From IMG/VR virus record IMGVR_UViG_3300033233_000005: a stretch of DNA of 18,124 nucleotides; one strand, written 5' to 3'. The notes beneath the pieces were generated by a model that saw only the letters and a program-made list of their open reading frames with translations, was not told the origin of the DNA and did no database searches. Made by a program: the position numbers and the translations under genes. Of this stretch, positions 4,750 through 17,171 are shown piece after piece; positions within the stretch are counted from its first letter, which is position 1, and each line of letters opens with the position of its first letter. This DNA is from a virus. Taxonomy: Duplodnaviria; Heunggongvirae; Uroviricota; Caudoviricetes.

Positions 4750-5490
4750 ATGGGTTGGTTAGATACTATATCTGGCTTAATAGGGGGTGCTGCAAAGACC
4801 CCAAGCCAACCGGTAGCTACCCCTAAACCCGTATCATCCCCTACCCCTCCTCCCCCAGCTCCTGCCAAATATCTGGATAAAACATTCATGGCGCGTATAA
4901 AAGCTAATATGGCGGATTACAAGAATGCCGCCAAGTTAACCAATATACCCTGGCAGGCTCTAGCCGCCATACATTTCAGGGAGGCAGAATTTGCCAGAAC
5001 AGTCAAAGAACCAGGTGGTCCCTTCCAATTGGACCCAGGTGGTGAGAAGAATGACCTTAATAAAAGGTGCTGGGACTATACTGTAAAGGTATGCAAGAAG
5101 TACGGCGCTAAGGCTACTGACATTAATACCAATTTCGATTCTGCTGCTCTAGTCGGTGCACACGAATTCGTGTCCAAGCCCGGAGCATCCCTATATGACG
5201 ATAAGGGTAATCCAATCAGAGAGAATATAGCTGATAGAATGTTCAGCTATAATGGTAGATCAAAGCACTACTCTGAAAATGAGCAGGTCGGACACGGTAA
5301 TACCACCCCAGCATGGGAGTGGTCCCCATACGTAAATAACAACCCTAATATGGGTAGGGTCCTCAAGATAGTAGCAACCCAGCTGAATGACAAGGGAGAA
5401 AGAATCACAATAGCTGGTACACCAGATCCCAGACCCGGCTCGATCATAATTTATGACGAGCTGATGTCCAGGGGATTTGAGCTAGTCTAG
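4750..5490 (+). CDS. Endolysin, lysozyme/SLT-like fold, with a Pro-rich N-terminal linker
   Basis: PWQALAAIHFRE (candidate catalytic Glu), GGPFQL and MFSYNG match the three lysozyme-superfamily motifs. Downstream of holin-like genes. Confidence 0.7.
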   Translation: MGWLDTISGLIGGAAKTPSQPVATPKPVSSPTPPPPAPAKYLDKTFMARIKANMADYKNAAKLTNIPWQALAAIHFREAEFARTVKEPGGPFQLDPGGEKNDLNKRCWDYTVKVCKKYGAKATDINTNFDSAALVGAHEFVSKPGASLYDDKGNPIRENIADRMFSYNGRSKHYSENEQVGHGNTTPAWEWSPYVNNNPNMGRVLKIVATQLNDKGERITIAGTPDPRPGSIIIYDELMSRGFELV

Positions 5491-5540
5491 GCGCTTCAGC
5501 CTAACTTACCTGTTAGTTTCCCTATAGGAGGAATTAACCT

Positions 5541-5663
5541 ATGGACATGAGATCCTTAACCCGACCTGAAATCAAGGTCATTTTTAATAACCGACGTGTG
5601 AGACGTTTATCTCATAAAGTCAGCGGGAGACAACCGTTGCGCTCTCCACGTCGGCCTAACTAA
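5541..5663 (+). CDS. 40-aa arginine-rich peptide (MDMRSLTRPEIKVIFNNRRVRRLSHKVSGRQPLRSPRRPN)
   Basis: Translated by hand. Strong SD AGGAGG at 5526-5531. Fills the gap between the two lysins. Confidence 0.55.
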   Translation: MDMRSLTRPEIKVIFNNRRVRRLSHKVSGRQPLRSPRRPN

Positions 5664-5693
5664 TAAAATAAATTAGAAAATAGGAGGATGCCG

Positions 5694-6413
5694 GTGAATA
5701 TACTACGACATCTAATAGTACTAGCAGCCATGACAGCGGCAACGGTTAAAGCTGATCCCACAGTAAGTGCCACTGCATTGTTTGAAAGCACGATCCATGC
5801 TCATTTTGACAATGCATTGCCCTGCTGGAAACCAGCCAGAGGCATACCATCTCTACGCACTATAGATAAAGAAATCAGGGCCACTATTGAGGCCGCCACT
5901 ACATTTTACGATAGTGATCCGGAGATGATGTATCTATTGTACAATATCGGGCTAAGTGAGGGTGGCGGGCATATTCGCAATAATGTTAAACCAGGAGAAA
6001 AGAGCTGGGGATGGACGTGCATGACGATACCAGAAGTGCGTAGAGTATGCAAGAAATATGAATGGCTTAAGCAGATATGCCCCAAGAGAGATGTAGAAGT
6101 ACAGGAAAAATTAGATGCCGATCCTAGATTTTGTATGCTTATGACGGCGGCCACTATGAGAATTTACCAGAATGAATGCAAAGGTGATTATATCAATGCC
6201 TTAATGATATACAAACATGGAGAAAGGGGATTGCTTGCTGCTATCAATAAATTACGCAGAGAGAAACCAAATGCTCCAATGACAGAATTGTATGAATGGA
6301 AGAAATATATAGGATTATTGGACTGGCTACATTGCATCAGAGACAGGGTATTGGTAGACTCGATTATAACCTGCGGATGTATGGCGGCCGAGGAGGCCAC
6401 CCGTGTTAAATAA
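5694..6413 (+). CDS. Secreted lytic-transglycosylase (SLT)-like protein
   Basis: SD AGGAGG abuts the ATG at 5688, so GTG 5694 is the better start. Signal peptide MNILRHLIVLAAMTAATVKA/D. IGLSEGG (candidate catalytic Glu), GWTCM (GLMQ-equivalent), DPRFC and ALMIYKHG (ALAAYNAG-equivalent). Nine Cys. Confidence 0.6.
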   Translation: MNILRHLIVLAAMTAATVKADPTVSATALFESTIHAHFDNALPCWKPARGIPSLRTIDKEIRATIEAATTFYDSDPEMMYLLYNIGLSEGGGHIRNNVKPGEKSWGWTCMTIPEVRRVCKKYEWLKQICPKRDVEVQEKLDADPRFCMLMTAATMRIYQNECKGDYINALMIYKHGERGLLAAINKLRREKPNAPMTELYEWKKYIGLLDWLHCIRDRVLVDSIITCGCMAAEEATRVK

Positions 6414-9040: not shown

Positions 9041-9718
9041 ATGGCTTGGACGATTAAATCACAGGAACGGTACGAGGATCAGGTTAAATCCTATCTAGAC
9101 AAAGTCAAGGCTGACATAGCATTCGGCATACAATTGGCTGAAACAGAAGTTCCTAAACTAGCCGAGGGCAAAGTGAATGAAGACAGCCTCCGTGGTGCAC
9201 TAAATAGCATCAATGAAGGCATAGAAGCCTTAACCCAAGCCAGACATATAGTGGAAACATATCCGAATGAGGTTATGGAATCTAGCCTATTTAGTACCCC
9301 GCTGGAAATGCTGGCTAAAGCCGTATTTATATTAGAGGTGAATGTAGACGCCGTCACCAATGAAGATACTGTGCTAGATAGACAGGCACATCCGGCTGCT
9401 ATAACTCGTGCCATCGCAGATTTAAAGGCAAGCTTAGACACGATAAATAAGATTTGGATACCACAGTTCTTCACTCAACCAGGTGAAGGTATCCCACAGG
9501 AATATGAAACCGGAATGTGGAATACAATGCGCAAGCTCATTCGCAATCTTGAGCAGACCAAGGAAAAGAGCAAGACTGAATTGCTTCAGGAAGAGATTTA
9601 TGGGGTACCCGGCATCAAATGGAAATTTAGAAAGCCGCGCAGGATGACCTTGCCCCCACATTCACAGCAGATGGAGCGTGAACGGGAGAAGCGTAGCGTA
9701 CCTAAGAAGTTCTTCTAA
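9041..9718 (+). CDS. Hypothetical helical protein with basic C-terminus
   Basis: 225-aa ORF with SD AAGGA. No motif recognised. Confidence 0.65.
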   Translation: MAWTIKSQERYEDQVKSYLDKVKADIAFGIQLAETEVPKLAEGKVNEDSLRGALNSINEGIEALTQARHIVETYPNEVMESSLFSTPLEMLAKAVFILEVNVDAVTNEDTVLDRQAHPAAITRAIADLKASLDTINKIWIPQFFTQPGEGIPQEYETGMWNTMRKLIRNLEQTKEKSKTELLQEEIYGVPGIKWKFRKPRRMTLPPHSQQMEREREKRSVPKKFF

Positions 9719-9725
9719 ACAGTGA

Positions 9726-9749
9726 TGGGGAGGCCACTTGGCCTCCCCA
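9726..9749. terminator. GC-rich hairpin between convergent transcription units (likely bidirectional terminator)
   Basis: Perfect inverted repeat TGGGGAGGCCA-CT-TGGCCTCCCCA between the stops at 9718 (+) and 9772 (-). U-tracts are weak. Confidence 0.6.
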
Positions 9750-9771
9750 CCCTGAATTACCTGCCAGACGC

Positions 9772-10149
9772 TTATTTTACTTCGTAGGAACTCTCAGCCA
9801 GGACCTTGTCACCAGATAACACTCTTACCTTCCACACGCCAACTGCTCGGTAGGTCTTCCCTTTCTCGCTCTTCCATGAAAGGGTCCTATAGGCGCGGGT
9901 CCTGGCCTGGCCAGCATCCTTGGAACAGGACTTCCAAGGAGCCTCATAAGATGAGGATTCAAACATTTCATTCGGGCTAGTAAATTCTACCGTCACACTA
10001 CCTGATGTCGGGCAATCGGCAATACCGTTCAATGCGATGTTTGCCCATAGTTTATTGCCCTTCTCGGCTAACTGTAACTCGGCAGTTACAGATGCCATAG
10101 CTGCACTCGCTAGAGCTACAGCAAATACGGCTGCCATCATCTTCTTCAT
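9772..10149 (-). CDS. Secreted small Ig-like (beta-sandwich) protein
   Basis: SD AGGAGG. Signal peptide MKKMMAAVFAVALASAAMA. Two Cys. The C-terminal GVWKVRVLSGDKVLAESSYEVK is a typical Ig-like final hairpin. Confidence 0.7.
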   Translation of the reverse strand: MKKMMAAVFAVALASAAMASVTAELQLAEKGNKLWANIALNGIADCPTSGSVTVEFTSPNEMFESSSYEAPWKSCSKDAGQARTRAYRTLSWKSEKGKTYRAVGVWKVRVLSGDKVLAESSYEVK

Positions 10150-10158
10150 TCGTTCCTC

Positions 10159-10557
10159 CTATCTGATTGGTTGGTCGTATCCTTGCATCTCGCGTATTAC
10201 TTCTTCTAGTAATACATCTGGTTCTTCTATCGTTAACAACAGAGGATCAACAAAGTCTGTCGAACGAAATTTATACATATTGATGATCCTGTAATGATCT
10301 AATCCATCCCACATTATGTGTGATTGTCCATCAGCCATTACATATTCACTTGTTGGCCAGTCTGCCATTATACTGCTGACACGAGATCCAATACACATAT
10401 ACACATCGCCTTCTAAGCGGACTATACCCACAGAGTCAGCCAGTGTCACCGCTCTGATAAATTCGTTCGGTCTGTCGGCTGATATCCAACTGTAAATGCC
10501 TTCTTTTTGATCCCATGGCGGGAAATGATAGAACTCATGGATTCTAAACGCTTTCAT
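10159..10557 (-). CDS. Hypothetical protein, DP[L/F]-motif family
   Basis: 132 aa. C-terminal STDFVDPLLLTIEEPDVLL. Confidence 0.7.
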   Translation of the reverse strand: MKAFRIHEFYHFPPWDQKEGIYSWISADRPNEFIRAVTLADSVGIVRLEGDVYMCIGSRVSSIMADWPTSEYVMADGQSHIMWDGLDHYRIINMYKFRSTDFVDPLLLTIEEPDVLLEEVIREMQGYDQPIR

Positions 10558-10565
10558 GTGATTCC

Positions 10566-10574
10566 ATTGTAGCA
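10566..10574 (-). promoter_or_regulatory. Extended -10 promoter (TG-C-TACAAT) 8 nt upstream of the 10557 ATG
   Basis: Minus strand reads ...cacTGcTACAATggaatcacATG. Confidence 0.4.
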
Positions 10575-10594
10575 GTGCGAGCTAAATGGTATAG

Positions 10595-10617
10595 TCTCAT
10601 GCCTACGGCGCATGAGA
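10595..10617. other. Intergenic hairpin (possible terminator or processing site)
   Basis: TCTCATGC-CTACGGC-GCATGAGA, 8-bp stem, just downstream of the 10629 stop on the minus strand. Confidence 0.45.
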
Positions 10618-10628
10618 TATCATTACCA

Positions 10629-11060
10629 TCAAGCCCTTGTGGGGAGATTGCTCCTGCTATATACATCTTCTAGTATGGCCCTCACCATGTCCTTTACATT
10701 CTTTATGGTGGTGATAAGCGGGTCTAATAATTCATTGCTGTCTATCCAGTAACCAAGTATTGGATAATATACTATGCCAGCGTCCGATTTCATTATCATC
10801 TTCAATCCATTCCCGCCCCTAATAGAGCCTATTAACATGTAGATGTGGTTACTAAATTCTAAACCGAACATGCCGATTGCATCTATTTGACTACCATTAA
10901 TTCCACCGAAATCCAGCAATGGAATCAATTCCTGTATACGTTTAGCATTCAAATGCATGATCATTATTTCATTGGCACTAAGCGCCGCCATAGCCATATC
11001 CGGTTTGGAATACGGTATCCTAGCAATCCGGAATACGTCTACCTGGTCCAGGGCATTCAT
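10629..11060 (-). CDS. Hypothetical protein, DP[L/F]-motif family
   Basis: 143 aa with SD AGGA. C-terminal DSNELLDPLITTIKNVKDMV. Confidence 0.7.
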   Translation of the reverse strand: MNALDQVDVFRIARIPYSKPDMAMAALSANEIMIMHLNAKRIQELIPLLDFGGINGSQIDAIGMFGLEFSNHIYMLIGSIRGGNGLKMIMKSDAGIVYYPILGYWIDSNELLDPLITTIKNVKDMVRAILEDVYSRSNLPTRA

Positions 11061-11255
11061 GACATTTTTCCTACATCGTTTTATACCCCAAAGAAAGCAA
11101 GACGAGGTATTTCCAAGCCATTCAGAAGTATAGGATGGCTATCTCAATATTTTTGATCCATCCGCATATGTCTCCGGGCTTCTTCTTTGCAGGAAGAGTA
11201 TATACTAGATAATCTACGGCATACCAATACAGGAACCCTGAACGCTTTAAATATA

Positions 11256-11296
11256 TTGTTATGATCGTCAGAATCTGTATAAAATAGGATACAGAT
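11256..11296 (+). promoter_or_regulatory. Putative operon promoter with overlapping palindromic operator
   Basis: TTGTTA (11256-11261) with TAAAAT (11280-11285) 18 nt downstream. Inverted repeat ATCTGTAT-N8-ATACAGAT (11273-11296) covers the -10 box. Confidence 0.4.
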
Positions 11297-11320
11297 GAAA
11301 TCGCTCTGGAGAGCGTAACC

Positions 11321-12553
11321 GTGGGACAGCCGGGTCGTAGACCCAAGATCTCCCCTGAAACAGTAGTAAAGATCTTAGAAGCCCACAAGAATAGTACCTT
11401 CCCCAGTGCCAAAAGGATGGGGGAAGCATTCGGCATATCTAGGCATGCCGTTGAAGACACACTAAGAAGGCACGGAATGGGCAAGAGCAATTTTAATCCC
11501 CACACTGTACAGGCTGTACTAGCACTGTTAGATTCTGGTTTAACTCATGAACAGATAGGCCAGCAACTGGGCTTAGCTAAAAGCTCAGTCAGTCAGGCAG
11601 TATATGAGAATCAGACCAGCATACTAAAACCAATTGAGCAGGAATACCACAAAACCGTCGCACACAGACAGTACATAGCGGCCAGATGGAAACCGGGTAG
11701 ATACGTCGTAGGTAATGACTCTCATATCAAATTTCATTCTAAAGAATGCTTAGACGCTATCATGGCATTAAAAGGCGATTTTGATGGATTCATAATGGCT
11801 GGTGATTTAATAGACGGATATTGGGTATCGTCGTTCCGCAAGAGCACTTACGCTCCTTTGTCACAGGAAGTAGCAGTTGCCACAGACATAATGAAGATGT
11901 TCGCCAAGAAATTTGGCCGGGTGCTCTACTTCCATGGGAACCATGAGGAGAGACTATGGAAGTACTTACTAACAGAAGGTGAAGGTCTAGTCAAAACCGC
12001 TGGACCAGCGGCTGAGATACTAATCAAAGCCTTTGAAGACATCCGGCACTGGTACTTCGGTAACATGCCAGGAGTACTGGTGCATTACGGCTGGTTCGTC
12101 CAGATTGGTAAGACTGTCATTTCACATGCCGACTTGTACAGTCAAATGCAGGGTAGAACAGTACAGAACATCCTTGAACACTTCTTAAATCGTGCCAGAG
12201 AATGGCAGACAGGCGAGATAGACGCTGTATTAGAGGCACACTTACATCGCCATTCTGGACCACAACGCAAATGGGGACGATATCTATGGGAATTACCCTG
12301 CATGTGCGGACCACTCGACTATCAGATGGGAGCCAGAGCCAGCAAGGGACAGACGGACACCGGTTACAGTATAATCGTCATAAATAAAGACGGCACTTTT
12401 AATTTTAATGAAAGCAGGAGCTATTTGGTTGATGTTACGCCACCCAATATGCCAGATCCGGAATCTGAAATGATAGAAGTTGAGAAACCGGATTTTGAAA
12501 GACCGAAGATTATGTTTGGTAACGATAGGATAGTACTAAAAGACAAGAAATAG
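11321..12553 (+). CDS. Calcineurin-like metallophosphoesterase with two N-terminal HTH domains
   Basis: All five MPE motifs are present in order: ND-S-H, AGDLID, GNHEER, SH, AHLH. The N-terminus has GRRPKI (resolvase/Hin-like arm) with SAKRMGEAFGISRHAV and LTHEQIGQQLGLAKSSVSQ as HTHs. Confidence 0.85.
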   Translation: MGQPGRRPKISPETVVKILEAHKNSTFPSAKRMGEAFGISRHAVEDTLRRHGMGKSNFNPHTVQAVLALLDSGLTHEQIGQQLGLAKSSVSQAVYENQTSILKPIEQEYHKTVAHRQYIAARWKPGRYVVGNDSHIKFHSKECLDAIMALKGDFDGFIMAGDLIDGYWVSSFRKSTYAPLSQEVAVATDIMKMFAKKFGRVLYFHGNHEERLWKYLLTEGEGLVKTAGPAAEILIKAFEDIRHWYFGNMPGVLVHYGWFVQIGKTVISHADLYSQMQGRTVQNILEHFLNRAREWQTGEIDAVLEAHLHRHSGPQRKWGRYLWELPCMCGPLDYQMGARASKGQTDTGYSIIVINKDGTFNFNESRSYLVDVTPPNMPDPESEMIEVEKPDFERPKIMFGNDRIVLKDKK

Positions 12554-12561
12554 GAGGTCCG

Positions 12562-12816
12562 ATGCCTTATATTAAACCAGATGAAAGAAAGGCATTCGAT
12601 GAAGCAATAGCTCGCCTTGGGAATATTACCACTCCAGGCGAGTTAAACTATGTCATCACTAGGCTATGCCATCAATATTTGCTAAATAAAGGCACAAACT
12701 ATGACAATCTAAATGCTATAACTGGAGTTTTAGAATGTTCTAAACTAGAAATAACACGGAGATTGACAGCGCCCTATGAAGATAATAAAATCAAAATTAA
12801 CGGAGATGTATTCTAG
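12562..12816 (+). CDS. Conserved small phage protein (resembles DUF6899, recognised from memory)
   Basis: SD AGGAGG. MPYI...GELNYVIT...GVLECSKLE..RR..APYED.KI..NGDV pattern. Confidence 0.7.
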   Translation: MPYIKPDERKAFDEAIARLGNITTPGELNYVITRLCHQYLLNKGTNYDNLNAITGVLECSKLEITRRLTAPYEDNKIKINGDVF

Positions 12817-13303
12817 TCGCAAATTACAATGGGTAAACAATAATCGTGACAAGATGCGCGATTATCAGAACAAGTATTACATCAAACACAAAGAACAGAT
12901 TAATCAAAGAGATAAACAACGACGAATTATCGCTCGTAAACATAAGAAATGTAAGTTTTGTAGTAAACCATGCCTCGATTTAGATAGACGTATATATTGT
13001 AGCGAGAAATGTTTTAACGAAGCTAGTAAAATCATTACAGACAAACGCAGGAGGCAACGGGCACAATGGTATTCTGAGTATAAAAGGTCATGCGGTGGGT
13101 GCGTTAAGTGCGGATATTCGAAATGTTTAGCAGCATTGGGGTTCCATCACACAAAAGATAACAAATCGTACAGTCCAGCTAGTATGAAAAATGTGGCCAA
13201 ACGAAATATCATAAAAGAACTGAATAAATGCATTGTCTTGTGCGCCAATTGTCATATGGAGGAACACGAAATGAGTAAAATAAAGGAGAATGGTGATGTC
13301 TAA
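12806..13303 (+). mobile_element. Free-standing HNH homing endonuclease gene
   Basis: CVKCGYSKCLAALGFHH...ELNKCIVLCANCHMEEH is an HNH with Zn ligands. Basic N-terminus with a further CKFC...C...C cluster. AT-rich. The likely start is ATG 12806 inside the upstream gene's end (the track gives 12776). Confidence 0.85.
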
Positions 13304-13760
13304 AAATTTGTCGCTGTACATATCACATCCTTTATCGGGATTAACTGTAGAAGAAGTTGACGAATGGTATGAACGTTGGATCAACAGATTTAAAGATAAA
13401 GGCTTCAGAGTTTTTGATCCTATATCAATGCAATCAGCATTAAAAAATATGAAGAATACGACATTAGGACACACAGTACCCGATGGCCTAGGTGGCATAA
13501 CTAATGATAAAGCGATTTTTGAACGCGATAAATGGGCCGTAACACAGGCAGATATTATATTAGTAGACTTATCTACAGCTACTAAAGTGTCTATCGGTTG
13601 TCTATCTGAATTAATTATAGCCCACACATTAAATAAACACACTATTACTATCATGGATAAACACAATTGTCATTGGCACAGTTTTATCATTCAAGCATCT
13701 GCTATAATATTAGATACTATGGATGAAGCATCGCATTATTTAGAGGCCTTAAACAAATGA
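13296..13760 (+). CDS. Nucleoside 2-deoxyribosyltransferase / DNPH1-MilB-like nucleotide N-glycosidase
   Basis: LYISHPLSG, VFDP, RDKWAVTQADIILVDL and SIGCLSE (catalytic Glu) match the NDT-like Rossmannoid fold. SD AAGGAG is 7 nt before ATG 13296. Confidence 0.8.
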   Translation: MSKNLSLYISHPLSGLTVEEVDEWYERWINRFKDKGFRVFDPISMQSALKNMKNTTLGHTVPDGLGGITNDKAIFERDKWAVTQADIILVDLSTATKVSIGCLSELIIAHTLNKHTITIMDKHNCHWHSFIIQASAIILDTMDEASHYLEALNK

Positions 13761-13858
13761 GAGATGCATTAAAACACAGGCTACATAACAAACGATATAG
13801 GGATAAACACAAAATCCTTGGTATGTGTTCAAAATGCGTGATATTCATCTCCATTTAA
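13757..13858 (+). pseudogene. Probable remnant of a second homing endonuclease (33 aa: MRDALKHRLHNKRYRDKHKILGMCSKCVIFISI)
   Basis: Translated by hand. ATGA-coupled to the NDT stop. The basic RYRDKHK...CSKC resembles RKHKKCKFCSKPC of the intact HNH. Starts MRD like the deaminase. Confidence 0.45.
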
Positions 13859-14739
13859 GTGGTGCCACCCCACCCGAGATTTTATGGGAGATCGTGCGTG
13901 AGAGCGGATTTAAGACCGGTTCCAAGAATTATTGGCATTTTGCTCAGAATATCACGATGGACCGCACCAAGGTCAAAGACCTTGATTCGTATCTCCAGGT
14001 GCTGCATGCTATCGAAGAGGCTCAGAGCAGTCCATTAGCCGTTCAGGAATCGGTTTATAGTGCCTACCGCGCCTCTTATATGTATGGTTGTACTTATATG
14101 GAACTTAGGTGGAACTGTGTTAAGCGTTCTCAGAAGGGACGCATCGATCTGGATTCCCTGATCGTGGCTGCACGCGCTGGTTACGAACGGGCCAAGATGA
14201 TTTACGGCATAGAAGGCGGCATGATCCTCTGTTTGGGCCGCGATTGCTCAGAAGAAGAAAATGCGGCATTGTTTAAAAAAGCGATCCAATATAATGACAA
14301 AGGTATTATTGGGTTAGACATAGCTGGCCCCGAACATAACAGCATCCCCAAGGAATTCGTGCACTATTATAAAGCTGCTAATGCATCCAAGATGATTACC
14401 ACCTGTCATGTTGGTGAAACTGACCATAACAAGGTAGAAGATGAAATCGCATTCGTGTTAGAGAAATTGCAACCACAGCGTATTGGCCATGGAGTACAGA
14501 TAGTTAAATATCCAAAACTATTGAAGAAGGCTGCTAGCATGGGTATCCATTTCGAAATATGTATTTCATCCAATCTGGTTACCAGAGCAGTAGCTGACCT
14601 ACAAGAATTTAGAGATATATTTAGGACGTTTGAAAACAATGGTATAAACTTTTCTATCAACACAGATGCCTTGTTCCCTCTTGGCACCAATATCAAGAAG
14701 GAAAACGAATTGTTCCAACAGATTAAAGAATTGGCGTAA
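13834..14739 (+). CDS. add: Adenosine/AMP deaminase family metallo-amidohydrolase
   Basis: DIHLHLSG, GLDIAGPE, CHVGE, RIGHGV, EICISSN and INTDA are the ADA-family motifs in order. ATG 13834 (MRDIHLH) is preferred over GTG 13825. The substrate is uncertain, so the symbol marks the family only. Confidence 0.9.
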   Translation: MRDIHLHLSGATPPEILWEIVRESGFKTGSKNYWHFAQNITMDRTKVKDLDSYLQVLHAIEEAQSSPLAVQESVYSAYRASYMYGCTYMELRWNCVKRSQKGRIDLDSLIVAARAGYERAKMIYGIEGGMILCLGRDCSEEENAALFKKAIQYNDKGIIGLDIAGPEHNSIPKEFVHYYKAANASKMITTCHVGETDHNKVEDEIAFVLEKLQPQRIGHGVQIVKYPKLLKKAASMGIHFEICISSNLVTRAVADLQEFRDIFRTFENNGINFSINTDALFPLGTNIKKENELFQQIKELA

Positions 14740-15188
14740 TGGGGAGATCAAAAATGGATCAGAAACTAGACGACAAATTAGTCAAAGACTTCCCACTATT
14801 GTATAGGGATAGAAATGAAGATATGTCTAAGACCTGTATGTGCTGGGGATTTACATGCGATGATGGCTGGTTTAAGATAGTCTACGATGCTTCCAAGCAG
14901 ATAGAGAAATTAATAACGCACAGCCTTAAGTACAGAGAATTTAAGGCCGCTCAAGTTAAAGAAAAATATGGCACTCTGCGGTTTTATATGAACCTATCTG
15001 ATGCCAGGGTAGAAAAGATCATAGACAAGGCTGAGGCATTATCTGCCAAGACTTGCGAAATGTGCGGTAAGCCAGGCAAATTGTCTTCTACTGCACAGAA
15101 TCGAGGCTGGTTAAAAACTCTATGCGATTCCTGCAGAAAGGCTCACAAATATCATATCGTAACAAAGCAAACTGGTATTGGACCTTAA
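14739..15188 (+). CDS. Conserved phage protein of the GW...QVKEKFG.LRFY type with C-terminal Zn ribbon; function unknown
   Basis: CDDGWF, QVKEKYGTLRFY, TCEMCGKPG...WLKTLC..C. TAATG-coupled to the deaminase. Confidence 0.75.
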   Translation: MGRSKMDQKLDDKLVKDFPLLYRDRNEDMSKTCMCWGFTCDDGWFKIVYDASKQIEKLITHSLKYREFKAAQVKEKYGTLRFYMNLSDARVEKIIDKAEALSAKTCEMCGKPGKLSSTAQNRGWLKTLCDSCRKAHKYHIVTKQTGIGP

Positions 15189-15508
15189 TCCAACCAATAA
15201 TTAACTGCCATAACCAACATTACCTTGGTGTTCTTGGTTTGGCAGATTAGCGGGTCATCTACGTCATCCTGCGACATGTACAGATATTTGGGCATCCCAG
15301 GGTCCGCATATGGGTTCTCAATGCAGAACCCCTTGCTATTCCGCCAGATCGTCGTAGTGTACGACCTTGTCATTAATATATTTCTTAACTGCTCAGCCGA
15401 TTGTGCATCGTTGACCTTACGGTAGATCATCGCGAATCTGGCCTGCCTAGTCCAATCGCGCTGCACGTTCCTAATAATCAGATTGCAGTCAACATCGTCC
15501 ACGGTCAT
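15185..15508 (-). CDS. Hypothetical protein, DP[L/F]-motif family
   Basis: 107 aa. SQDDVDDPLICQTKNTKVML. TAATG-coupled to the upstream gene. Confidence 0.65.
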   Translation of the reverse strand: MTVDDVDCNLIIRNVQRDWTRQARFAMIYRKVNDAQSAEQLRNILMTRSYTTTIWRNSKGFCIENPYADPGMPKYLYMSQDDVDDPLICQTKNTKVMLVMAVNYWLD

Positions 15509-15813
15509 TAGGATGCGTAAACGCGCCGCGTTCCACCACCTCTAGTCTTCACGATTTTACCGCCATCAAGGGGGTCGTGCAGTACACCCTGATTGCCCAC
15601 GATGGTTTTGATAACTTCCTCGATCGGTTTGGTCCATACTGTACTATGGTTGACGCTGGCACCATCAACGGCCCAGTATTTGATCCGATTCGGTAATTTA
15701 CCGATTGTAACATAGTATCGATCATATCTGCCAGTTTCGCTATCCACTTGAAATTCCAGTCCCACGGCTACACCACGATTAAAACGTACGAGTATTCGCG
15801 TTTTCCGCTTCAT
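15508..15813 (-). CDS. Hypothetical protein, DP[L/F]-motif family
   Basis: 101 aa with SD AAGGA. GVLHDPLDGG. Confidence 0.65.
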   Translation of the reverse strand: MKRKTRILVRFNRGVAVGLEFQVDSETGRYDRYYVTIGKLPNRIKYWAVDGASVNHSTVWTKPIEEVIKTIVGNQGVLHDPLDGGKIVKTRGGGTRRVYAS

Positions 15814-15814
15814 A

Positions 15815-16210
15815 TCATTCCTTTTGTGAGATCCTGGGTGCTACTGTATATATCCCGCTCTCTTCCCATTGAAAGGGATCACATACATCATCAGTTAAAT
15901 GCATATTTAAATGTCTCAACACGTCTTTAACAAAATATACGTAACGAGAGCTATAATGCATCGGGCTAGGGGCCAGAATTCCATCAACCGTCACCATAGG
16001 ACTCTCGTTCCACCAAATCTCCCAAGACACCATATCAATACTTTTAAGATCGAATAGTTTAATAAAATGATTGCCATGCACATCTTCTGCTAGTTTAAGA
16101 GCCGTACGCGCATGTGGTAACTGGACGCCTAGACTCTTATCAGTCAACCTGCCATGCTGGTCTAAATACTTGGTAACGCACAACAGGATTTCAAACGATC
16201 TACCTTTCAC
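15815..16210 (-). CDS. Hypothetical protein, DP[L/F]-motif family
   Basis: 131 aa. LTDDVCDPFQWEE. Confidence 0.65.
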   Translation of the reverse strand: MKGRSFEILLCVTKYLDQHGRLTDKSLGVQLPHARTALKLAEDVHGNHFIKLFDLKSIDMVSWEIWWNESPMVTVDGILAPSPMHYSSRYVYFVKDVLRHLNMHLTDDVCDPFQWEESGIYTVAPRISQKE

Positions 16211-16622
16211 TCCAACGCCCCTTTTGCCGATCCCAATATTCCTGGTCTTCCTTGTTTAGACGAGAGACCCATAGGACCTTACATGTTTCGCACACGTGAT
16301 AGCGATGGGCTACACTGATATGGAATCTTCTACTGAAATATTTATTCCAGTTTAATCTATAAGTATGGGCCTCTACCACCTGGCTATATGTCTTACTGCC
16401 ACCACAATATATGCATGTTTCAGATATAGAAGCTGCGTGTAGGTACCTATCTTCCACTGCCTGACCGGACATGGGATACTTAATATACCACCACAACCAT
16501 GCGCCACCGATTATGGCTGATATTAACAGTACGCTAGACAGCGTTCTAATCGGATATTTAACCAGGCGCTTGGGCAGATGCTTCTTGTGGTCTAACTTGA
16601 CGTCACCTATTACAAATTTCAT
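16200..16622 (-). CDS. Single-pass membrane protein with Zn-ribbon-like CxxC...CxxC domain
   Basis: TM LSSVLLISAIIGGAWLWWYI, then CIYC and CETC. ATG 16622 is preferred over GTG 16634. Confidence 0.65.
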   Translation of the reverse strand: MKFVIGDVKLDHKKHLPKRLVKYPIRTLSSVLLISAIIGGAWLWWYIKYPMSGQAVEDRYLHAASISETCIYCGGSKTYSQVVEAHTYRLNWNKYFSRRFHISVAHRYHVCETCKVLWVSRLNKEDQEYWDRQKGRWSER

Positions 16623-17020
16623 GCTGACTTCCACACTATTTTAGCATCTTTAATTTTTAATGTAGCACGGTGAACAATAGGTAATGGGATATACGCATTC
16701 ACCACTGTAAATTCCTGACCATGTGCGCTATTCATATACGGCTCCCAAGCAAATGGATCATGTGTTCTGTCTATAATAGATAACAACGTTTCCAAGCCTC
16801 TCTTAACCGTTAAAACTCCAATGTGAAACGGCTTCCTCTTGGTTCCCACCTTGTCGGATACGCTTTTAAGTGCGGCAAAAGTATCTGTTTTTCTCATTTT
16901 ACGCTTAACCACTATGACGTTTCCTCTCCTAGAATTCCATGGATCAAGCCATAATACGATCCTGCCCCATTTAACAGCGATAAACGCTTGGTTAAAGATA
17001 CCTACTGTCGGCTTACCCAT
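16619..17020 (-). CDS. Hypothetical basic protein, DP[L/F]-motif family
   Basis: IDRTHDPFAWEP. ATG 17020 overlaps the upstream stop. Confidence 0.65.
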   Translation of the reverse strand: MGKPTVGIFNQAFIAVKWGRIVLWLDPWNSRRGNVIVVKRKMRKTDTFAALKSVSDKVGTKRKPFHIGVLTVKRGLETLLSIIDRTHDPFAWEPYMNSAHGQEFTVVNAYIPLPIVHRATLKIKDAKIVWKSA

Positions 17021-17171
17021 ATACAATATTAGCCACTACTATACAATGAATTAATTCAATCATGCCAAATGCTATTAATCCTGCGCCTGGACTATGGTTT
17101 ACTAAGGCTACTCCCACGCCAAATATCGTAGCTATTAATATTACAGCATGGTTTAAATTGGGCTTGAACAT
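17013..17171 (-). CDS. 52-aa two-TM membrane protein (not in the ORF track)
   Basis: Hand translation: MFKPNLNHAVILIATIFGVGVALVNHSPGAGLIAFGMIELIHCIVVANIVYG. SD GGAG 8 nt before the ATG. Fills the gap exactly. Confidence 0.65.
   Translation of the reverse strand: MFKPNLNHAVILIATIFGVGVALVNHSPGAGLIAFGMIELIHCIVVANIVYG

Follow-up and report, generated by a model that had tools for sequence, protein, structure and literature searches.

The genes described here lie at positions 11321-15188 of an 18,124-nucleotide window (the whole stretch of DNA that was analysed) from IMG/VR virus record IMGVR_UViG_3300033233_000005, a member of the Caudoviricetes; the window belongs to a 163,875-bp metagenomic contig (ena:ERZ27248239:k141_1314216). 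According to the open reading frame (ORF) map, the block consists of six plus-strand ORFs and is bounded on either side by minus-strand genes. Two of its products are the main subject: (i) a 154-amino-acid (aa) protein of the nucleoside deoxyribosyltransferase (NDT) superfamily with a DNPH1-type residue pattern (13296..13760, plus strand; Nuc_deoxyrib_tr, PF05014, E 5e-6, just under the curated cut-off); and (ii) a 301-aa zinc deaminase of the adenosine deaminase (ADA) family (13834..14739, plus strand; A_deaminase, PF00962, E 1.5e-40). The other four genes encode a helix-turn-helix (HTH) metallophosphoesterase (MPE), a DUF6899 protein, an HNH endonuclease, and a zinc-ribbon protein. Megablast comparison of the block with 50,697 phage records gave zero matches.

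A preliminary description of this DNA had reported five co-directional, mostly coupled genes with their own predicted promoter. The ORFs that it named, their strand, and their families are confirmed, and the first four genes are tightly coupled, with an 8-nt gap followed by overlaps of 41 nt and 8 nt; but the genes number six, and a 73-nt gap separates the NDT-fold gene from the ADA-family gene in the window. The predicted promoter did not hold up: promoter-like sites number 14, against 12.5 +/- 3.5 in shuffled sequence, which is not above chance, so that only the 260-bp divergent intergenic gap upstream of the block (11061..11320), with one weak sigma-70-like site at 11256-11285, is left to speak for a promoter of its own. 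The block is still one unit as judged by its geometry, because opposite-strand genes flank it on both sides and the divergent gap precedes it.

The deaminase belongs to the PF00962 superfamily. Aligned with mouse ADA, it has all of the zinc ligands and catalytic residues: both histidines of the HxH motif and a third His, the catalytic Glu-His pair, and the Asp that coordinates Zn. H5, H7, H192, E195, H219, and D278 are invariant in an alignment of 67 sequences, and the signature of the clade is HxHLSG[AS], D[IV]AGPE, HxGE, IGHG, and [CN]TD[AS]xx. The residues that anchor the substrate are another matter. The protein reads HLHLSGA where mouse ADA reads HVHLDGA, and NTDALF where mouse ADA reads NTDD, with Ser at the position of mouse-ADA D19 (ribose 5'-OH contact) and Ala at D296 (N7 contact). 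Among 120 homologues, Ser occupies the D19 position in nearly all, and D296 is replaced by Ala, Ser, or Gly in all common motif variants. R92, K97, and R98, which follow strand beta-2, are invariant in the 67-sequence alignment, as is a Q64/P67 segment in the region of the gating helix. In a phylogenetic tree, the clade (~104 sequences) is split from ordinary ADA at 100% support in the Shimodaira-Hasegawa-like approximate likelihood ratio test (SH-aLRT). The protein is not a classical adenosine deaminase (Add/ADA1), as the D19 and D296 anchors are gone and its TIGR01430 score (153 bits, cut-off 216) falls below the NCBIfam adenosine deaminase equivalog cut-offs. The suspicion that both the ADA-family and the NDT-fold enzyme are atypical, with changes at their substrate sites, was borne out, and the changes in the former are conserved across the 120 homologues.

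An AlphaFold2 (AF2) model of the deaminase, with a predicted local distance difference test (pLDDT) value of 94.7, has template-modelling (TM) scores of 0.86-0.89 to adenosine deaminases, 0.85-0.86 to adenine deaminases, and 0.81-0.87 to N6-methyl-AMP deaminases. The predicted fold confirms the superfamily and does not settle the substrate, because the model is about equally close to all three activities. Classical ADA (mouse 1A4L; Vibrio and Salmonella Add, 6N91/6N9M) shares the (beta/alpha)8 fold, the Zn ligands, and the catalytic Glu/His/Asp, but is only ~20-25% identical, and the phage protein has, besides the missing aspartates, a shorter gating helix and a clade-specific QSSP insertion. 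The N-terminal half of the protein, compared alone with PDB sequences, gave no meaningful match.

The substrate site can also be compared with that of MAPDA/ADAL (PDB 6IJM, 6IJN, and 8QCH), which deaminates N6-methyl-AMP. MAPDA of Arabidopsis needs a 5'-phosphate, has Asn at the D19 position, and holds the phosphate through Thr98 and Lys100 after beta-2 (PMC6451127). Like MAPDA, the phage protein combines the ADA fold with a small polar residue in place of the 5'-OH Asp and with basic residues after beta-2, where MAPDA binds phosphate. Since Ser at D19 and the invariant K97/R98 resemble this nucleotide-specific pattern, the substrate of the ADA clade is predicted to carry a 5'-phosphate. The absence of Asp296 from the clade does not fit the pattern, as MAPDA keeps this N7-binding residue, and the profile similarity of the phage protein to MAPDA (E 3e-20) is weaker than that to bacterial ADA (E 7e-30).

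ADA-family genes are rare in phages, as the preliminary description had supposed. A homologue of any kind was found in 8 of 50,697 phage records, several of which resemble bacterial contamination, and scans of IMG/VR yielded one contig with such a gene (L008, 67.5 kb). On several phage contigs the clade keeps company with PurZ, the adenylosuccinate-synthetase homologue of phages that write 2-aminoadenine (Z) for adenine in their DNA, in which Ser replaces the catalytic Asp. Five independent phage contigs (L006, L008, L096, L097, and L146) each have a member of the clade no more than ~10 kb from a PurZ-type gene, and three of these contigs came up with identical sizes in two independent protein searches. 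PurZ-type genes are present in 64 of the 50,697 phage records, and the 406-aa L008 homologue, which has GSSGKG, has as its phage relatives only known Z-genome phages (phiVC8, S-2L, Acinetobacter SH-Ab-type, and others). Both the ADA clade and PurZ-type genes are missing (0/44 each) from a control set of 44 unrelated IMG/VR phage records, 8 of them complete.

In L008, a PurB-like lyase gene lies one gene away from ADA; ThyX, primase, and DnaB are close by, and PolA-PurZ is at a distance of 9 kb. The order in L097 (38 kb) is dUTPase-RecA-helicase-UDG-ADA-primase-DnaB-UDG/PolA-sigma-PurZ-dNMP kinase (UDG, uracil-DNA glycosylase; dNMP, deoxynucleoside monophosphate), and L146 (126 kb) has the same gene order. 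In L008, L097, and L146, ADA is part of a replication module, where it has the helicase on one side and the primase on the other; the module runs on to DnaB-PolA-PurZ-dNMP kinase. PurZ is 8 kb from ADA in L096 (45 kb), and the PurZ-family gene of L006 (67 kb) is truncated by the end of the locus. The 67-kb L008 record, the one ADA-PurZ record searched whole, was found to contain a dUTPase, and no YfbR-HD (DatZ), DUF550 (MazZ), or NDT gene was found in it; L097 and L146 likewise have dUTPase genes close to ADA. Recurrence with PurZ in independent phages, as expected of a component of a Z-genome module, therefore holds for ADA but not for the wider NDT-like family (0/44).

Several features of the ADA-bearing loci deserve mention in their own right. 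In L146 (9195-10993), a gene for an N6-adenine methyltransferase (MethyltransfD12) shares 4 nt with the start of ADA, an odd partner where adenine is expected to be missing. In L097, a separate UDG gene stands immediately before ADA (5137-5871) and a second UDG domain is fused to the family A polymerase (9367-12219); these genes fit the UDG-dZ association reported in a preprint (bioRxiv 10.1101/2025.10.22.683976). ADA-PurZ phages of this type (L006:12548-16099 and L096:16961-17383) encode large glycosyltransferases, one with an intein/LAGLIDADG insertion, as well as a small HAD_PNKP phosphatase, a candidate nucleotidase, two genes from PurZ. A bacterial member of the ADA clade (L015:9061-10915) lies directly downstream of an HD-domain gene on an endosymbiont-like contig with many ankyrin-repeat genes; that HD protein bears no relation to the 282-aa ORF found upstream of ADA in L008. 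In the tree, PurZ-linked phage members occupy both the deepest branches and an inner clade, and no direction of transfer is claimed.

The NDT-fold protein belongs to a family for which an exhaustive profile-free search gave 972 representatives. The family conserves Y8, R77-D78, D86, S99-x-G101, E105, H128, and F130, with Y8, D78, S99, and E105 kept at 96-99%. Profile alignment to rat Rcl/DNPH1 (SLGVGYE) equates D78 with the general acid, S99 with the phosphate-accommodating Ser, and E105 with the nucleophilic Glu; Trypanosoma brucei NDT has an Asp at the position of S99. An AF2 model (pLDDT 94) retrieved human DNPH1 as the first Foldseek match, followed by bacterial NDTs and MilB. The protein thus has what is expected of a DNPH1-type dNMP N-hydrolase, namely the triad, a Ser six residues before the Glu, and the fold, and from these motifs and the DNPH1-first list of structural matches, dNMP N-glycosidase is the best-supported predicted activity. 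DNPH1/Rcl shares the Tyr / Asp / Ser-x-Gly-x-x-x-Glu pattern as well as the fold, but is only ~20% identical, and H128 and F130 are invariant residues peculiar to the phage family. We take Arg19 of Rcl to occupy the position of Ser14 in the phage protein.

The closest relatives of the block tie this protein to the deaminase. In L013 and L014, whose ADA is 72% identical to that of the window, the order is MPE-(DUF6899)-NDT-ADA without an HNH gene, and NDT and ADA share 4 nt, at the stop of the one and the start of the other. The full order is found in L014, and in L013 it lacks DUF6899. The wider NDT-like family occurs without ADA (0/44). Another relative, 41% identical to the NDT-fold protein, is translationally coupled to a dGTP/dATP diphosphohydrolase domain (PF18909). 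By this relative and by the coupling to ADA in L013 and L014, the NDT-fold protein is tied to the editing of nucleotide pools.

More widely, NDT-like genes are general in phage replication modules, next to PolA, RecA, QueD, DUF6899, and small metallophosphoesterases. Relatives of the NDT-fold protein (L119/L120:6001-7908; L099:9194-10116) adjoin RecA and QueD/PTPS, the latter belonging to the 7-deazaguanine pathway, in some phages, and are translationally coupled to a DUF5664 deoxynucleoside triphosphate (dNTP) diphosphohydrolase domain in others. The family may serve to remove canonical dNMPs in phages with various types of base modification. The wider family was considered as a marker of Z phages and rejected, as none of the 44 records contains PurZ. 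A single PF00709 match among the NDT-like records (G014) was likewise rejected as PurZ, since it keeps the catalytic Asp (GDETKG) and is of the PurA type.

Phages that write Z for A must exclude dATP from replication, for which two solutions have been published, DatZ/MazZ and DutZ/DmtZ. In PurZ0 phages, DutZ converts dATP and dGTP to monophosphates (Poubanne et al., 2026; PMC12884076). Acting downstream of it, the NDT-family enzyme DmtZ releases adenine from deoxyadenylate (dAMP) by hydrolysis and is also able to pass deoxyribose 5-phosphate on to the Z base (PMC12884076). The structural neighbours of DmtZ are DNPH1, NDTs, and MilB (Poubanne et al., PMC12884076), a list that matches that of the NDT-fold protein described here. 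Contigs with dZ modification are enriched in NDT domains, and one such enzyme prefers dA (2025 preprint, bioRxiv 10.1101/2025.10.22.683976). The word "deaminase" is found in neither of these two papers (PMC12884076; bioRxiv 10.1101/2025.10.22.683976), and a literature search found no paper that joins PurZ or diaminopurine with adenosine deaminase.

With inferred substrates, the NDT-fold/ADA pair is best read as analogous to the DutZ/DmtZ pair (Gordonia phage Ghobes gp55/gp53; Arthrobacter phage Wayne). Likenesses are the clearance of deoxyadenine nucleotides by enzymes of a phage with PurZ (proposed in the present case), an NDT-superfamily enzyme nearest DNPH1 and MilB, and a dUTPase-like gene in the ADA-carrying PurZ phages; in contrast to DutZ/DmtZ, the NDT-fold family here is not PurZ-specific, Asp12 of DmtZ corresponds to Ser14, and a deaminase is added. 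The NDT-fold protein was also considered as a DmtZ in its own right, and rejected: BLASTP against Ghobes DmtZ gives E 0.6, Ser14 stands at the Asp12 position, and the neighbours are HNH and ADA. A functional analogy to DmtZ is possible. With DatZ/MazZ/DUF5664-DUF550 (S-2L, phiVC8, and SH-Ab 15497), the pair shares a presumed aim, to take dATP out of the pool and supply dGMP to PurZ, but those enzymes act by phosphohydrolysis, whereas hydrolytic deamination and N-glycosidic cleavage are proposed here.

Taken together, the reading preferred here, at a probability of roughly 0.55, is that the NDT-fold/ADA-fold pair forms an arm for the disposal or re-routing of adenine nucleotides that serves a Z-DNA pathway. 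The virus is probably a Z-genome phage, with 2-aminoadenine in place of adenine in its DNA, and this type of ADA, because it recurs beside PurZ in other uncultured phages, probably represents a route for the removal or re-routing of adenine nucleotides that has not been described before. In the scheme envisaged, a putative dUTPase-like pyrophosphatase encoded elsewhere would convert dATP to dAMP; in relatives, dUTPase genes are found near ADA. The ADA-type enzyme would then turn an adenine 5'-nucleotide (dAMP and/or AMP being the likeliest) into its inosine counterpart by deamination, and the DNPH1-like enzyme would split the deoxynucleotide (dIMP or dAMP) into the free base and deoxyribose 5-phosphate. 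Adenine would thereby be kept from the dNTP pool, and the purine ring might return via IMP to GMP and dGMP, the substrate of PurZ. We infer that the substrate is dAMP/AMP rather than a nucleoside or base, that the steps occur in this order, that the enzyme discriminates against Z, and that the purine returns to dGMP. Such a scheme would amount to functional convergence with the DatZ and DutZ/DmtZ solutions of known Z phages.

The preliminary description had offered the building of a non-canonical dNTP for genome modification as one option. Its setting survives, because the co-occurrence of the ADA clade with PurZ on five contigs and the published NDT-family enzymes that destroy dAMP favour DNA base replacement as the context, but the role proposed is the removal or re-routing of adenine and not the building of a dNTP. 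The preliminary description had also rightly named PurZ among the genes to look for. A more specific form of the preferred reading is put forward tentatively, with the odds somewhat against it: the ADA clade may be a (deoxy)adenylate deaminase that tells A from Z, and so a third chemistry of adenine exclusion, which in this lineage would act with the DNPH1-like enzyme as a deaminate-then-deglycosylate pair and recycle host adenine to guanine and Z precursors.

A number of observations weigh against an adenine-disposal arm. The wider NDT-like family is linked to neither PurZ nor ADA (0/44 records), adjacency of NDT and ADA is limited to this lineage (ADA identity >=72%), and sequence comparison detects no similarity between the NDT-fold protein and Ghobes DmtZ. 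HTH-MPE, DUF6899, and the zinc-ribbon protein are all generic, widespread phage families. Phage-like ADA contigs L001, L002, and L004 show no PurZ in the 8-10 kb that is visible. The ADA clade also has bacterial members, of which L015 has DnaK, MnmG, and ankyrin proteins as neighbours, and a derived sub-clade holds sequences labelled as Rickettsiales metagenome-assembled genomes (MAGs); because such members exist, the clade is not intrinsically a Z-pathway enzyme. The HD-domain, DnaK, and MnmG neighbours of the L015 gene suggest a cellular role for the clade, perhaps conversion of adenylate to inosinate.

The chemistry of the deaminase raises a further difficulty. Adenine, deoxyadenosine, dAMP, AMP, and dATP are all possible substrates of the ADA clade. 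Mouse ADA with a D296A substitution is nearly inactive. The D296A form of MAPDA is nearly inactive as well (PMC6451127). Given these two mutants, the clade, which has lost this aspartate, may have a very different mode of purine binding or another substrate altogether.

The main rival explanation, judged rather unlikely, confines the link with Z-DNA metabolism to the ADA gene: the block would be a syntenic set of unrelated accessory genes, the NDT-fold enzyme would have an ordinary replication role, and no two-step pathway would exist. This would account for the NDT-like genes beside PolA, RecA, QueD, and DUF6899 in 44 IMG/VR records that have neither ADA nor a PurZ-type gene, for the lack of an adjacent NDT gene in any relative with ADA identity <=69%, and for the 73-nt gap between NDT and ADA in the window. 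It accounts less readily for the 4-nt overlap of the NDT stop with the ADA start in the two closest relatives, for the NDT-like relative that is coupled to a dNTP diphosphohydrolase, or for the publication of NDT-family dAMP hydrolases as a component of Z phages (PMC12884076).

Ordinary purine salvage, in which a host-derived adenosine or adenine deaminase and a nucleotide glycosidase would recycle degraded host nucleic acid without any relation to Z DNA, appears improbable. Bacterial members of the clade do lie in housekeeping surroundings, and classical adenosine deaminases are the closest solved structures. Against such a role, however, the association with PurZ is far above background, the clade as a whole has lost the aspartates by which classical ADA anchors ribose and base, and the protein scores well under the NCBIfam adenosine deaminase equivalog cut-offs.

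ADA-fold enzymes are also used in bacterial defence, as in KomA (Kongming), RdrB (RADAR), and Cad1 (type III CRISPR). These share the fold with the phage protein and act on adenine nucleotides and not on nucleosides, but they are host-encoded, larger, and tied to sensors or effectors; the phage ADA is not such a defence deaminase, as it shows only a weak, partial match to the CARF_ADA deaminase domain (E 3e-14) and has no partner genes, and PADLOC made no defence-system assignment for the block proteins. The anti-signalling role that the preliminary description had listed found no specific support beyond this PADLOC match. That the pair would deplete dAMP or deaminated signals (Kongming, whose dITP signal is made from dAMP), or destroy adenine-based second messengers, is very improbable: T5 Dmp beats Kongming by dAMP removal alone (10.1101/2024.12.20.629578), so that any dAMP-destroying enzyme could have that side effect, which is conceivable here but not indicated in the block, whereas the other five block proteins match no defence or anti-defence family, deamination of dAMP would make the Kongming precursor dIMP and not remove it, and in genomic terms the strong association is with PurZ and replication genes and not with anti-defence loci.

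The interest of the adenine-disposal reading lies in a large uncultured PurZ lineage that repeatedly carries an ADA-type gene inside its replication module, with DatZ and MazZ missing from the L008 record. If the enzyme deaminates adenine nucleotides and spares Z, it would represent a new reaction in the Z-DNA pathway and explain how these phages do without DatZ. It would also provide a compact synthetic-biology tool to raise the Z content of engineered DNA, and define the substrate of an ADA subfamily of ~100 clusters, bacterial members included, that is now annotated "adenosine deaminase".

Of the remaining genes of the block, those for the HTH-metallophosphoesterase, DUF6899, and zinc-ribbon proteins are neighbours inherited within this phage lineage and have no demonstrable link to the pathway. 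The notion of a single five-gene pathway was given up, as the MPE, DUF6899, and zinc-ribbon families are widespread, the zinc-ribbon gene is not kept after ADA in L013, and the wider NDT-like family is unlinked to PurZ or ADA. The HTH-metallophosphoesterase (410 aa; 11321..12553, plus strand) has two N-terminal HTH motifs (HTH_23) and matches PF00149 (E 2e-5, above the cut-off) and phrog_221 (1e-12). Its translation contains the metal-binding motifs intact (DSH, GDLID, GNHEE, SHAD, and AHLHRH), as expected of a calcineurin-like enzyme. HTH-MPE is a widespread phage architecture with various HTH types in the Atlas, and a C-terminal MPE fragment lies upstream of the NDT gene in L013 and L014.

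The DUF6899 protein (84 aa; 12562..12816, plus strand; PF21840, E 4e-29) and the zinc-ribbon protein belong to large phage-only families. The DUF6899 gene stands between MPE and NDT in L014 and not in L013, and lies <=6 kb from NDT-like genes in six loci; a literature search found no paper mentioning "DUF6899". The gene that follows encodes a free-standing HNH homing endonuclease (175 aa; 12776..13303, plus strand; phrog_2255, E 1e-18), which the preliminary description had overlooked and which overlaps both the DUF6899 and the NDT genes. Because L014 has no HNH gene at the same DUF6899/NDT junction, this gene is a recent, lineage-specific mobile insertion within the coupled run. The zinc-ribbon protein (144-149 aa; 14754 (or 14739)..15188, plus strand), which has a QVKEKYGTLRFY motif, belongs to no Pfam family and faintly matches the N-terminal region of HNH phrog_2255; in the Atlas it falls in phage clusters, one of which is fused to NADAR. 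Its gene was not found after ADA in L013, and the protein probably stands outside the pathway.

Beyond the block, a 125-aa ORF on the minus strand (9772-10149) has a clear N-terminal signal peptide (MKKMMAAVFAVALASAAMA) and no family match, and its product is a secreted or lipoprotein-like phage protein. Small minus-strand genes at 10159-11060 and 15185-17026, which flank the block, encode proteins that end in a DP[LF] motif (e.g., DPLLLT, DPLITT, DPLICQ, DPFQWE, and DPFAWE), and the same motif is found in the gene that follows ADA in L013.

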